IMG/VR virus record: IMGVR_UViG_2681813154_000010
Direction: 5' to 3' (one strand)
Source: a virus
Lineage: Duplodnaviria > Heunggongvirae > Uroviricota > Caudoviricetes
DNA length: 15,799 nt
Part shown: positions 1-14,338 of the stretch, one piece after another
Position numbering within the stretch: the first letter of the stretch is position 1
How the letters are laid out: every line of letters begins with the position of its first letter
Program-made: the position numbers and the translations under genes
Notes under the pieces: generated by a model
What the model saw: only the letters and a program-made list of their open reading frames with translations
The model's database searches: none
What the model was told of the DNA's origin: nothing

Positions 1-1230
1 ATGAGCAGAGCACTTAACAAACTGAGCGATACACAGCTGAGGAAAATCAACGGCACACCCGCCCAAAAAACAGCCTTTCTTAATGACGGTGGAAACCTGA
101 GCGTCAGGCATTCAACCAGTGGCCTTTTAACCTGGTATTTCACTTACAGGGCCGGAACGGGAAGGGGGGCACCACCGGAACGCATTAAGCTGGGAAATTA
201 TCCTGATCTGAGCCTGAAATCAGCCAGGGAAAAAGCCGCCCAGTGTCGCGCATGGCTGGCAGAGGGGAAAAATCCACGTCATGAGCTTAATTACACCGTA
301 CAGGAAGCGTTAAAGCCGGTAACGGTTGGCGATGCGCTCACCTACTGGCTTGAGTCGTACGCAAAGGAAAACCGCGTGGATTATGCCGCCCTGAAAAAGC
401 GCCTTAATAATCACGTAATACAGCACATTGGTGCTATGCCGCTGGATAAATGCGAGCTACGGCACTGGCTGGCCTGTTTTGACCAGGTGGCAAAGCGAAC
501 GCCTGTTACTGCCGGATTCTTGCTACAGACGTGCAAACAGGCGCTTAAGTTCTGCCGGAGGCGGCGCTATGCAATCAGCAACGTTCTTGATGATATGAGT
601 GTGGCGGACGTTGGGAAAAAACCGGATATAAGCGAGCGTGTCTTAAGCACCAAAGAACTGGGCGAATTATTGCAGGCACTGGACAAAAAAATATTCTCCC
701 CCTACTACATCGCGTTAATCCGCCTCCTGATTGTGTTCGGATGCCGGACGGTAGAACTGAGGTTATCGGAGATCAGCGAGTGGGATTTTACCGAAATGCT
801 CTGGACCGTGCCGAAAGAACACAGCAAAACGAAGGTGGCAATATTCCGGCCCATACCGGAAGCAATACTGCCGTTCGTCACGCAGCTGGTGGAGCAGAAC
901 AGGCACACGGGCTTATTGCTGGGGGAAGTGAAACAGGAAACAAGCGTGTCGCAGTACGGCAGATTAGCGCACAGGAGGCTAAATCACCCTCACTGGTCAC
1001 TACATGACATCCGGCGCACCTTTACAACGATGCTGAACGATTTAGGCGTGGATCCTCACGTCGTGGAGCAGCTTACAGGCCACCAGATGCCAGGAATGCA
1101 GCGAGTTTATAATCATTCCCGTTATCTGGATGCTAAACGCAATGCGCTGGATATGTGGACGGAGCGGTTAGGGATACTGGCGGGAACACATGAAAACGTA
1201 ACCACGCTACCAGTAGCCAGAAGAAAATAA
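1..1230 (+). CDS. int: Tyrosine recombinase / phage integrase (P4-type family), 409 aa
   Basis: Full ORF from ATG at position 1; C-terminal catalytic region with HDIRRT ... GHQ ... VYNHSRY (R, H-x-x-R, Y pattern of tyrosine recombinases); first gene of the element, followed by alpA as in CP4-57-like islands. Confidence 0.9.
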   Translation: MSRALNKLSDTQLRKINGTPAQKTAFLNDGGNLSVRHSTSGLLTWYFTYRAGTGRGAPPERIKLGNYPDLSLKSAREKAAQCRAWLAEGKNPRHELNYTVQEALKPVTVGDALTYWLESYAKENRVDYAALKKRLNNHVIQHIGAMPLDKCELRHWLACFDQVAKRTPVTAGFLLQTCKQALKFCRRRRYAISNVLDDMSVADVGKKPDISERVLSTKELGELLQALDKKIFSPYYIALIRLLIVFGCRTVELRLSEISEWDFTEMLWTVPKEHSKTKVAIFRPIPEAILPFVTQLVEQNRHTGLLLGEVKQETSVSQYGRLAHRRLNHPHWSLHDIRRTFTTMLNDLGVDPHVVEQLTGHQMPGMQRVYNHSRYLDAKRNALDMWTERLGILAGTHENVTTLPVARRK

Positions 1231-1604
1231 TTTTTTTCGTGTTTTTTCAGTATGCGCATACTGGATATGCGAACAGATACAACGTGCAACAATGAGCAAC
1301 AATGCGGAACAACTACGAACAAGAGGTGAAAAAGTGTACAGATTTATAAGTAGCTGATTTTTAATGTGTTACTGATTTTTTATACACTAGCGAATCACTC
1401 TTTAAATAGCGAGAAAAAAGGCATGAAACAATATTTTATGCCTTTGTATTAACATGAATTTAAAGGATTTTATCCTGATTATTCCTCTTTCTGTAAACCA
1501 TACGGCCTCAACATTTGCCAACTCTGAATCATCCTGACACAATCAGACACATCCCAACGCAATAGAACACGAAATAACTCTTTAAGAAACGAAAGGGGGC
1601 AATA
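1231..1604 (+). promoter_or_regulatory. AT-rich int-alpA intergenic control region with a perfect 10-bp palindrome TATGCGCATA (1251..1260) and tandem CAACAATG / GAACAA repeats (1286..1322)
   Basis: Read directly: palindrome at 1251..1260; gcaacaatg at 1286..1294 and 1296..1304; gaacaa at 1307..1312 and 1317..1322. No ORF with a credible RBS in 374 bp. Confidence 0.4.
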
Positions 1605-1793
1605 GTGTTAAGCACTGATCGGTTTATACGTGAAAAAGAATGCGAAAAGCTAACAGGCCTTAGCCGCTCATGCCGCTACCGCCTGGAAAAGGCCGGACAA
1701 TTCCCATCACGTCGTAAACTTGGCGGTCGTTCCGTTGGCTGGTCTTTATCCGAGGTTCTGGCCTGGAAGGATAGCTGCAAGGCAGTTCATTAA
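1605..1793 (+). CDS. alpA: AlpA-family (prophage CP4-57 regulator-like) DNA-binding transcriptional regulator / putative excision activator, 62 aa
   Basis: GTG start preceded by AAGGGGG; translation contains the AlpA-family core LTGLSRS..YRL...G.FP....LGGRSVGW...EV..W; followed by GC hairpin 1801..1817 without a U-run. Confidence 0.85.
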   Translation: MLSTDRFIREKECEKLTGLSRSCRYRLEKAGQFPSRRKLGGRSVGWSLSEVLAWKDSCKAVH

Positions 1794-1939
1794 TCACGCT
1801 GGCGGCACGCAGCCGCCACACATCAATCATCTGAACACAGAGCTATAACCATGAAGATTGAATATACGCCAGAACGTGGGCGGGGATTCGTTCGCCCTGG
1901 TGAAACTGGAAAACCACAAAATTGGGGTTTTTCAGGCAT

Positions 1940-1968
1940 AAAAAAAGCGGCCCCGAAATGGAGCCGCC
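1940..1968 (-). terminator. Rho-independent terminator for a leftward transcript
   Basis: On the minus strand: stem GCGGCUCC / GGGGCCGC (8 bp, one G-U wobble), 5-nt loop, then seven U (plus-strand A-run 1940..1946). The same hairpin is poorer on the plus strand (C-A mismatch) and has no U-run there. Confidence 0.6.
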
Positions 1969-2062
1969 TTTCTGAACAGATAACCCGCTGCGCCGTTTGT
2001 GTGTGTGATCCCAAACATAAGCACGGGGATGATAGCCGCTATCAGGCTGGTGGGCAATGCAA

Positions 2063-2239
2063 TCAGTCTGGTTCAGTGCGTTGCCATAACTGCGAAGTTC
2101 TCTCCTTTGATGAGTATTCTTTAAGGTACTTCTCAAGGGCAAAAGAACACGGCGCGAATCGTTCTGATTCATGCTCTTTCTTTCTGCGTCGTCTTTTTCG
2201 TGCAGGTGATGTTTTTTCGGTTGATTCTTCGTTGGTCAT
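2063..2239 (-). CDS. Hypothetical small basic protein (58 aa, MTNEESTEKTSPARKRRRRKKEHE...) in the leftward unit; may instead be part of a non-coding RNA
   Basis: ORF translated by hand from the reverse complement; lies upstream of the minus-strand terminator; weak RBS; below the ORF-track length cutoff. Confidence 0.25.
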   Translation of the reverse strand: MTNEESTEKTSPARKRRRRKKEHESERFAPCSFALEKYLKEYSSKERTSQLWQRTEPD

Positions 2240-2299
2240 TGTGTGCGCCTGTAAAGCAATGCGCCGTAGTACCTCACACCACGGCGCTGATAGTTTTTA

Positions 2300-2401
2300 T
2301 CCTTTGGGTTCTATGCCGCGTTGCTGTAATTCTTTGCGGATTATTCGCTTTATCCAGGCAGCAAGAGAATCATCGCCGTCCTGTTGTTGTGCCTTTTCCA
2401 T
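2300..2401 (-). CDS. Hypothetical small protein (33 aa, MEKAQQQDGDDSLAAWIKRIIRKELQQRGIEPKG)
   Basis: Hand-translated minus-strand ORF with GGGAAAAG upstream of the ATG; sits next to the divergent promoter region at about 2400..2500. Confidence 0.25.
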
Positions 2402-2469
2402 CTTTTCCCGTAAGTCAGGATCTAAACGGAACTGGAACGGAGGATTACCACGCCTTTCGTTTTTGTGTG

Positions 2470-13247: not shown

Positions 13248-13260
13248 TGAGGTCAGCAGC

Positions 13261-13542
13261 ATGACAGAAGCCGAAATACTGCGATTAATCCGCCGCGTCT
13301 CTGGAATCAGCCAGCAGGCTGACGAACAGACCACGCAGCCGGACAGCGTGACAGCCGAAAATTATGCGCGTGTTGTTGCTGAGGTGATGCGCCGTGATGG
13401 TATCCAGCTTAATGATGCGGATATGCGCGACATACGGATCCGCGTTCTGGAAATGCTGGCCTACAATCGCCGCGTTGAACTGTATCGGGAGAAGGAGAAA
13501 ATCACGTACCACTGGAAGAAGCCGGAGCGGTTACGGCGGTAA
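13261..13542 (+). CDS. Hypothetical protein, 93 aa, last gene of the element
   Basis: ATG 13261 preceded by GAGGT; no recognisable motif. Confidence 0.5.
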   Translation: MTEAEILRLIRRVSGISQQADEQTTQPDSVTAENYARVVAEVMRRDGIQLNDADMRDIRIRVLEMLAYNRRVELYREKEKITYHWKKPERLRR

Positions 13543-13791
13543 CTCACTGAGATTAAAGCAAAGCGCAAAATTGCGCTGGCTACATCCCTCACATCTGAGG
13601 ACTGTTAACCAGCAGGCCGGAATATATTCAGAAACTACGAAATTTTCGCAGTTTAATTACTCGTCAGCTTAATCGCTAACCCGCTCTGATATTTTCGGAA
13701 ACCTCAATTTGAGGAAGTCGGCGAGGTAACTGTTTGATATTCCCGATAGCGCAAAGATGCGCGGTCGGGCAGAATGACCACCACCTCAATC

Positions 13792-13845
13792 GTGACGGAG
13801 AGTGACAACCAGTGACACACCGTGACAAAAAGACGGTTTAACCGT
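13792..13845 (+). repeat. Four GTGAC(A) repeats at exact 10-bp phasing followed by the palindrome ACGGTTTAACCGT; candidate integrase arm-type or regulator binding sites
   Basis: GTGAC at 13792, 13802, 13812 and 13822; palindrome at 13833..13845. Confidence 0.4.
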
Positions 13846-13879
13846 TCATTAAAAATCGACGTGATTTTGTGCTTTCCGG

Positions 13880-13903
13880 ATGACGTGGCCAACGTCATTT
13901 TTT
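13880..13903 (+). terminator. Candidate rho-independent terminator (7-bp stem ATGACGT / ACGTCAT, loop GGCCA, T6)
   Basis: Read directly; short AT-containing stem, so weak. Confidence 0.35.
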
Positions 13904-14205
13904 AGCGAAAAATTCTGATTAAGGTCACTGGCTGAACGGTCATAATGACCACGCAGACCATCGAGGCAACCATAGCGATCATCGTTACGGTTGGAGCTTT
14001 TCCGCCATTGGTGGAAAAGGTGCACATCTGGATCATCATTACGGTGATCAAGGGTATGTAAAACCCACCAGCCTGATTAAAGGTTAACCGGAAAAAAAAT
14101 CCGGTAGCCCCGTTATGGGGATCCCCATATCGACATTAACGCCCCTCATGAATTGGTGCGCTTCCCCCTGGAAAGATTACCCGCCTGTATATTTCTTGTG
14201 TCTAT

Positions 14206-14262
14206 TTGTTCCACGTTGTTTCATACAGTGCACCGAACGGTGTAGTTAATGGTGTAGTCAAT
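14206..14262 (+). promoter_or_regulatory. Junction-proximal repeat cluster: TTGTTCcacgTTGTT (15-mer identical to 6629..6643), inverted repeat CACCGaaCGGTG, and tandem 12-mer GGTGTAGTTAAT / GGTGTAGTCAAT
   Basis: Read directly: 14206..14220, 14231..14242, 14239..14262; within about 130 bp of the phoQ stop codon. Confidence 0.35.
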
Positions 14263-14338
14263 TTGCGATTTTTGGCACTTTTTCAATGAAAATTGTTTGA
14301 TCGAATCAATGACTTGATGTAGTGGTAAAAGGACATAT

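Follow-up and report, generated by a model that had tools for sequence, protein, structure and literature searches.

A Shigella flexneri allele of the capsid-forming satellite EcCIEDL933 with lesions in its capsid and terS genes

We analysed a 15,799-nucleotide stretch of DNA, filed as the virus (Caudoviricetes) record IMGVR_UViG_2681813154_000010 and here called the window, and found that it holds an integrated satellite beside the host gene phoQ. The insertion site, gene order and protein identities indicate that this element is the Shigella flexneri allele of EcCIEDL933, a satellite of the capsid-forming phage-inducible chromosomal island (cf-PICI) type at the same attB site. EcCIEDL933 is the prototype cf-PICI of E. 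coli O157:H7 EDL933, and S. flexneri is already among the species named as carrying similar elements (Alqurainy et al., bioRxiv 10.1101/2022.09.08.507074). The capsid gene of the copy studied here is interrupted by an in-frame stop codon, and its terS gene has lost its start. From the pattern of intact and damaged genes, we consider it likely that the element is a stranded cf-PICI in early decay that is inherited vertically; it may still excise and replicate, and would form no capsids and not package itself.

The same two host genes bound the element wherever we compared it. In S. flexneri, in E. coli RM6927 (NZ_CP074742.1) and in EDL933, roxA lies directly on the integrase side and phoQ directly at the other end, and in the EDL933 genome EcCIEDL933 sits at this roxA|phoQ site with the same gene order as the Shigella element. 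By comparing both occupied junctions with the empty site of E. coli K-12, we found a 10-bp attachment (att) core, GGACATATTT, at the right end of the element and again 181 bp before window position 1, the left copy being seen in the S. flexneri chromosome CP004057.1, in EDL933, in RM6927 and at one further locus. The empty K-12 site has a single near-identical copy, GGGCATATTT, in a roxA-phoQ gap of 75 bp at 4242-4316 of the K-12 locus. The core-to-core distance is 15,461 bp in EDL933, 15,141 bp in RM6927, 14,729 bp in most S. flexneri and 14,366 bp in CP004057.1 and the window, so that the core bounds a unit of about 15 kb. Because the EDL933 distance fits the published size of EcCIEDL933 (15.4-15.5 kb), it supports the att assignment. 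No tRNA gene serves as the att site: a tRNA scan of the window found none, and Rfam at gathering thresholds gave zero matches. An original prediction, made from the letters of the window, had placed the right end at 14300, which falls short of the att core; it had also proposed to look for the left att repeat upstream of position 1, where the left core was indeed found, and had named tail or lysis genes beyond the integrase as evidence against it. None are there, and the next gene is roxA. The insertion leaves phoQ intact, 14-15 kb now lie between phoPQ and roxA, and attL is 68 bp upstream of the roxA start.

To assign the element to a class, we used the SatelliteFinder core set (PMC10085698) together with Alqurainy et al. 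2022 as the definition of a cf-PICI. All 11 core components were present by homology, and none of the tail or holin genes that it forbids was found. Of the packaging genes, HNH and terL have their full length and terS is represented by a homologue that lacks its native start codon and ribosome-binding site; the capsid gene, which the definition expects to be intact, has a TGA at codon 276. The definition of a classical PICI did not describe the element, as portal, adaptor and connector, all forbidden there, are all present. Searches with Pfam, PHROGs and NCBIfam bore out the gene content that had been listed (integrase, AlpA, P4-family primase, head and packaging genes), a count of repeats bore out the iteron origin, and no open reading frame (ORF) in the window matched tail, tape-measure, baseplate, holin, endolysin or CI families in these collections, also as predicted. 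The predicted position next to phoQ was correct, with phoQ abutting the right end. When capsid, portal, terL and primase were compared with the reference cf-PICI, as had been proposed, the packaging proteins were 96-100% identical to those of EcCIEDL933 and the primase module differed.

Head and packaging genes from HK97-type phage families would also be expected if the element were what remains of a temperate HK97-like prophage, a defective left arm whose tail and lysis genes had been deleted. Three results make such an origin highly improbable: E. coli and Shigella share the same unit of about 15 kb, bounded by the same att core and the same two host genes and free of tail or lysis genes; complete phages (37-47 kb) reached at most 40% identity in the capsid and at most 36% in TerL; and experiments have shown the prototype at this site to be a satellite. 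The phage collection has closer entries only in the form of records of 3.8-16.5 kb and a single, anomalous Klebsiella record of 106 kb. The best homology of the structural genes is thus not to a complete temperate phage; a best match to such a phage is what the original prediction had named as evidence against it. A P4-like satellite is scarcely credible. A TIGR01613 primase, AlpA and an Icd-like protein are present as they would be in such an element, but no ORF in the window matched Sid, Psu or Delta (Pfam, PHROGs), and capsid, portal and terminase, all lacking in P4, are encoded by the element itself. The flanks, the distance to complete phages and the gene content all agree with the earlier assignment to the cf-PICI class rather than to a prophage arm or to the P4 type.

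The part of that assignment that did not hold is the completeness of the head and packaging machinery. Codon 276 of the capsid gene is TGA, where RM6927 has TGG (Trp) and the capsid structure PDB 9GYI, the EcCIEDL933 capsid model according to a 2025 preprint, has Trp. The stop splits the Pfam Phage_capsid profile into positions 1-166 and 169-278, carried by two ORFs in one frame. When the stop was read as Trp, 380 of the 385 residues were identical to PDB 9GYI; identity to the EcCIEDL933 capsid is 98-99%, and the SxGxxAD maturation motif is present as STGVPAD (residues 93-99). The TGA was found at 7/7 fetched S. flexneri loci and in the GTDB representative, and records with S. flexneri names list the truncated 275-aa product, in 3556 index blocks and on at least 1000 contigs. 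We conclude that the TGA is a genuine allele fixed in a lineage. A sequencing error was considered as its source and ruled out by the same counts. A repaired form of exactly this capsid allele was absent from the protein collection, and a non-exhaustive look-up found no intact S. flexneri copy.

The second lesion lies at the start of terS. Alignment with EDL933 revealed a 91-bp deletion between CCCCGCC repeats, and the lost segment comprises the terS ATG, the first seven codons, the ribosome-binding site and the region upstream. The remaining frame has an in-frame stop upstream, and its lone canonical start is a GTG at native codon 16. The terS-start segment is kept in 12/12 of the best E. coli matches. 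The deletion begins a few bases 3' of GGGGTGGGGGGCGTTTTCAGGAC, a sequence at which the linear record of vB_KppS-Ant (LR881103.1) ends, in homologous form; that record begins 22 bp before terS. Judging from these record ends, the probable cos cleavage region is at GGGGTGGGGGGCGTTTTCAGGAC, and the 91-bp deletion probably touches the cos region as well.

Two further losses precede the capsid gene. An ORF of 53 codons joins the beginning of ssb to the end of perC; its PerC Pfam match is limited to profile positions 50-77, and at least 1000 contigs with S. flexneri names carry the product. Upstream of this scar, orf101 occupies the position that ssb has in EDL933 and RM6927, and the 5' end of ssb comes after it (6383-6468, by alignment). 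Because orf101 stands in the place of ssb with the ssb remnant behind it, the Shigella lineage would have gained this gene before most of ssb and perC was lost. The other loss is a 363-bp deletion between 23-bp repeats, which only the window and CP004057.1 show among the compared S. flexneri. The missing DNA includes a 74-aa ORF that EDL933 and other S. flexneri keep. SFBU1023, the S. flexneri genome that serves as GTDB representative, has the capsid TGA and retains the 363-bp segment, unlike the window. In S. flexneri CP026810.1, the island contains an IS1 fragment and a split terL, and phoP beside it is split (positions 5719-6012, 14582-16242 and 18794-19464 of the compared locus); these lesions show further strain-specific decay in and beside the element.

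The remainder of the head and packaging module is well preserved. Across the module, the ratio of nonsynonymous to synonymous substitution rates (dN/dS) relative to EcCIEDL933 was 0.03-0.4, and that of terL was 0.03. Since dN/dS is low and the other packaging genes are full length, most of the divergence accumulated under purifying selection, and the decay is recent. The coordinates of all features are given in Table 1.

Table 1. Features of the window, with their positions in the 15,799-nucleotide stretch
Feature	Position	Strand	Evidence and remarks
Tyrosine integrase, 409 aa	1-1230	+	PF13356, PF00589 (arm-binding and catalytic domains); 100% identical to EcCIEDL933 integrase
14-mer TTGTTCCACGTTGT, inverted pair between int and alpA	1279-1292, 1299-1312	-	Candidate operator
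AlpA regulator/excisionase, 62 aa, GTG start	1605-1793	+	PF05930, 65 bits; phrog_2790; 98.4% to EcCIEDL933 AlpA
Accessory ORF between alpA and icd, 248 aa	1851-2597	+	67% identical homologue at the same EcCIEDL933 position
Icd-like protein, 66 aa	2606-2806	+	NF033153, 64.6 bits; 95% to EDL933 homologue
Three small ORFs (2796-3017, 2998-3162, 3232-3465)	2796-3465	+	phrog_2512, phrog_2196 (no function annotated); gene calls
DUF4222 protein	3471-3770	+	PF13973; 88% to EDL933 homologue
P4-family primase/D5-type SF3 helicase, 582 aa	3767-5515	+	PF08706, PF19263, PF03288 (D5_N, DUF5906)
Iteron-type replication origin, 11 TCTACC-core repeats	5529-5758		6 repeats on plus strand, 5 on minus; directly after primase gene
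orf92 (5804-6082) and orf101 (6079-6384)	5804-6384	+	phrog_1231, phrog_27268 (no function annotated)
ssb-perC fusion scar, 53 aa	6394-6555	+	Alignment; SSB residues 1-25 and last ~28 of PerC
Terminator-like hairpin and 23-bp repeat, junction of 363-bp deletion	6577-6599	+	Upstream of capsid
14-mer TTGTTCCACGTTGT, exact copy	6629-6642	+	217 bp upstream of capsid ATG
HK97-fold major capsid gene, 385 codons	6859-8016	+	PF05065 (Phage_capsid); in-frame TGA at 7684-7686 (W276*)
Prohead serine protease S78	8056-8628	+	PF04586, 163 bits; 97.9% to EcCIEDL933
Portal protein	8630-9841	+	PF04860, 295 bits; 97.8% to EcCIEDL933
Head-closure (head completion) protein	9838-10221	+	PF05521, phrog_25; 96.4% to EcCIEDL933; N run inside; intact 112 aa in CP004057.1
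gp6-like head-tail adaptor	10218-10558	+	PF05135, phrog_40; 96.9% to EcCIEDL933; N run inside; intact 98 aa in CP004057.1
N runs	10112-10192, 10411-10466, 11265-11306		Within head-closure, adaptor and terS, respectively
HNH endonuclease	10558-10998	+	PF01844, phrog_144; 99.3% to EcCIEDL933
60-aa ORF at position of EcCIEDL933 gene 1792	10982-11164	+	phrog_3173; 100% to EDL933 product
Probable cos cleavage region, GGGGTGGGGGGCGTTTTCAGGAC	11179-11201	+	vB_KppS-Ant record ends
Junction of 91-bp deletion, between CCCCGCC repeats	11210-11216	+	Alignment with EDL933
terS remnant, P27 family	11235-11602	+	PF05119; 100% to EcCIEDL933 over retained 108 aa; N run 11265-11306 inside
Large terminase terL, 553 aa, full length	11586-13247	+	PF03354, PF20441; 98.7% to EcCIEDL933
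Conserved ORF, 93 aa	13261-13542	+	phrog_1561; 93.5% to EDL933 homologue
Right-arm repeat	14189-14263	+	76% identical to 75 nt just upstream of int; includes TTGTTCCACGTTGT and tandem 12-mers
14-mer TTGTTCCACGTTGT, right att arm	14206-14219	+	Left-arm copy at CP004057.1 locus 3054-3077
Tandem 12-mers GGTGTAGTTAAT/GGTGTAGTCAAT	14239-14262		Candidate arm-type sites; left arm at CP004057.1 locus 3098-3121
attR core GGACATATTT	14331-14340		Overlaps phoQ stop codon by 2 nt
phoQ, flanking host gene outside element	14339-15799	-	Abuts right end

We asked what these lesions would mean for the life cycle of the satellite. Helper induction via AlpA, small T=4 capsids and the use of helper tails only have been shown for EcCIEDL933 alone. 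In an intact cycle of this kind, a helper phage would switch on AlpA, and the island would excise and replicate from its own iteron origin with its own primase-helicase. Its own capsid, protease and portal proteins would build small T=4 HK97-fold capsids; its own HNH, TerS and TerL would cut and package its own cos DNA; and its own head-closure and adaptor proteins would close the head, with the phage supplying tails only. In the Shigella copy, the lesions predicted to inactivate this cycle are W276*, the loss of the terS start with the 91 bp, the ssb-perC fusion and, in a sub-lineage, the 363-bp deletion. The integrase gene, alpA, the icd-like gene, the primase gene, the iterons and both att sites are intact, and the element may retain excision and replication. 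By contrast, the making of its own capsids and TerS-directed packaging have probably been lost in this copy, and the earlier statement that it builds its own capsids is probably no longer true of it.

Published mutants of the prototype bear directly on this point. Single-gene mutants of the EcCIEDL933 packaging module replicated without defect and did not transfer, except for gene 1792, the loss of which severely reduced transfer. The 60-aa ORF of the Shigella element appears from gene order to be the counterpart of gene 1792. In the EcCIEDL933 capsid, K290D, E319K and R345D each abolished transfer, and residues 290, 319 and 345 are all downstream of codon 276 and missing from the truncated capsid. 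Because capsid and terS mutants of EcCIEDL933 do not transfer, no packaging is expected of the Shigella copy.

Several points weigh against the loss of function. Among stop codons, UGA is the one most prone to leak in enterobacteria, where near-cognate decoding adds Trp, the residue originally encoded at this position. Some full-length capsid could be made through this leakiness, and the in-frame GTG at native terS codon 16 could yield a 103-aa protein. The remaining packaging ORFs have kept their full length, as they also would under continuing selection; for head-closure, adaptor and part of terS, which N runs interrupt in the window, integrity is judged from chromosomes that match the window elsewhere; and the losses of ssb, perC and the 74-aa ORF may or may not matter for a cf-PICI cycle.

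Taken to their limit, these points describe a fully working cf-PICI that reads UGA through as Trp, starts TerS at the GTG and spreads with helper tails, perhaps more slowly. The stop does replace a Trp codon, the other packaging ORFs have their full length and share 96-100% identity with the functional prototype, and int, alpA, the origin and the two att sites show no damage. Nevertheless, we regard a fully working element as unlikely. A T=4 shell takes some 235 copies of the capsid protein, and read-through does not usually exceed a few percent; essential packaging genes carry two independent lesions, and single mutations in these genes abolish transfer of the prototype; DNA beside the probable cos was also lost with the 91-bp deletion; and decay is ongoing, as seen in the IS1 fragment and split terL of CP026810.1 and in the 363-bp deletion of the window lineage.

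The spread of the damaged allele could also be read as a sign of use by the host. A domesticated remnant, no longer able to transfer but perhaps inducible, might be kept because its products interfere with phages, with the 248-aa ORF, the Icd-like protein or the terminase, HNH and portal set as candidates, or because expression at the phoQ-roxA junction is altered. The same damaged allele is found in very many S. flexneri assemblies, most of its ORFs are still open, and the insertion separates roxA from phoPQ. However, a PADLOC search placed no accessory ORF in a known defence family, vertical inheritance in a clonal, pseudogene-accumulating pathogen explains the spread equally well, and the extra lesions in individual strains argue against strong selection. 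We judge domestication to be quite improbable. There is also a slim chance that a cf-PICI with non-working capsid and terS genes has become fixed in S. flexneri and is still induced by phages, either as a non-transmissible anti-phage or regulatory module or as a leaky satellite whose supply of capsid protein depends on UGA-to-Trp decoding; if true, this would be a natural case of a satellite in transition to a domesticated host element. Shigella tends to accumulate pseudogenes generally, and the account that we prefer, a stranded cf-PICI in early decay, fits this tendency.

The identity of the window and the reliability of three of its ORFs rest on comparison with complete chromosomes. CP004057.1 is 100% identical to window positions 1-10111 and 11307-15799, and none of the complete E. 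coli genomes has the whole window, the top match being 96% identical over 90% of it. At least 80% of the length of the capsid-portal segment was found in 401 of the 5426 complete E. coli genomes. The three N runs of the window measure 81, 56 and 42 nt, as compared with 36 nt, 12 nt and a 14-nt overlap (-14) in gap-free, otherwise identical chromosomes, and their edges show a few mismatches and a duplicated 14-mer. They thus behave like scaffold gaps that distort three ORFs. Because the N runs sit inside head-closure, adaptor and terS, the ORF lengths of these genes in the window are artefacts. In CP004057.1, they have 112, 98 and about 103-108 codons, respectively, and match their Pfam families end to end.

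The replication module is where the element departs from EcCIEDL933. The primase shares 91% identity with its E. coli RM6927 counterpart and aligns with the DUF927 protein of EDL933 over the first 225 aa only, at 53% identity; its TIGR01613 score of 110.5 bits is barely over the cut-off of 108.7. The window has 13 TCTACC hexamers, 11 of which fall inside 222 bp (5532-5753), compared with a mean of 3.7 per window and a maximum of 10 in shuffled sequences.

A 14-mer, TTGTTCCACGTTGT, recurs in the two att arms, between int and alpA and ahead of the capsid operon. Allowing up to 2 mismatches, we found four sites in the window where 0.14 were expected, and they occupy the same positions in EDL933 and RM6927. 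From its placement, TTGTTCCACGTTGT is a candidate shared AlpA operator, which would link excision with activation of the operon. The tandem 12-mers GGTGTAGTTAAT/GGTGTAGTCAAT lie about 70-100 bp from the right att core and are repeated just upstream of int. Because the integrase has an Arm-DNA-bind_3 domain, they are candidate arm-type sites. A scan for sigma-70 and terminator consensus sequences gave promoter matches not above those of shuffled sequences.

The 248-aa ORF had no match in Pfam, PHROGs, NCBIfam or PADLOC, orf101 matched no function-assigned family in Pfam, PHROGs or NCBIfam, and PADLOC returned no defence-family match for ten accessory and antisense ORFs. The right arm (13543-14330) is non-coding over about 790 bp, and its small minus-strand ORFs had no family match in Pfam, PHROGs or NCBIfam. 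One of them, of 45 codons (13902-14039, minus strand), would encode a strongly hydrophobic peptide, MMIQMCTFSTNGGKAPTVTMIAMVASMVCVVIMTVQPVTLIRIFR, which could be a small membrane peptide, a toxin or a chance frame.

Taken together, these comparisons place the element in a kind already known, the prototype cf-PICI lineage at its usual site, and the original prediction overrated its novelty. The main value of the analysis is this correction, as the striking architecture opens no new question. What it adds is an S. flexneri allele with defined lesions (capsid W276*, loss of the terS start and the ssb-perC fusion), which could act as markers for dating satellite decay in clonal S. flexneri. Automated satellite finders would score the lesioned copy as a complete cf-PICI, and therefore counts of functional satellites in Shigella are probably inflated.

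Among known systems, the HK97-type siphophages (HK97 and the helper HK106) and the gene transfer agent (GTA)-like Rhodobacter capsid PDB 6TB9 share with the element the HK97-fold capsid and its SxGxxAD motif. HK97-type phages also share the S78 protease, the HK97-family portal and a cos packaging set of HNH, P27-type TerS and TerL. Complete phages of this type differ in that their proteins are 33-40% identical, whereas the Shigella element is about 15 kb without tail, lysis or immunity genes. With satellite P4 it has in common the C-terminal domain of the P4-family primase, an AlpA-type regulator and an Icd-like protein, but it has no matches to sid, psu or delta and brings its own head and terminase genes. 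Classical PICIs such as EcCICFT073 and EcCIED1a resemble it in the left half, with int, alpA, a primase-replicase and an origin, and the left-half genes of EcCIEDL933 have been reported to be identical to those of classical PICIs (bioRxiv 10.1101/2022.09.08.507074). They differ in lacking capsid, portal, adaptor, connector and terL, and remodel helper capsids instead.

Closer still is Escherichia phage vB_KppS-Ant, a 16.5-kb record from an induced lysate. It has a satellite layout (terS, terL, ..., int, regulator, primase, capsid, protease, portal, connectors, HNH), with a capsid 65% and a TerL 81% identical to those of the Shigella element. It differs in having another integrase and another accessory region, and its annotation notes no lesions. 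After terL, about where the Shigella element has the 93-aa ORF, a 765-aa tail length tape measure protein is annotated (2036-4333). This is an accessory gene, or else an annotation error in a satellite that was submitted as a phage.

The nearest relatives are at the same site. The RM6927 element matches the Shigella copy at 91% in the primase and 95-100% in the packaging module, and unlike the Shigella copy it has an intact capsid gene, terS start, ssb and perC. EcCIEDL933 itself differs in its DUF927 replication protein, where the Shigella element has a D5_N/DUF5906 P4-family primase with TCTACC iterons; left-hand modules are known to be exchanged among PICIs and cf-PICIs (SatelliteFinder, PMC10085698). 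It also has ssb where the Shigella copy has orf101, with ssb and perC unfused, and it measures 15.5 kb, as compared with 14.4 kb for the Shigella copy with its W276* codon and its 91-bp and 363-bp deletions. The two share the att core, an integrase with 100% identity, the 93-aa ORF and the right arm, and a nine-gene packaging module in the same order with 96-100% protein identity.

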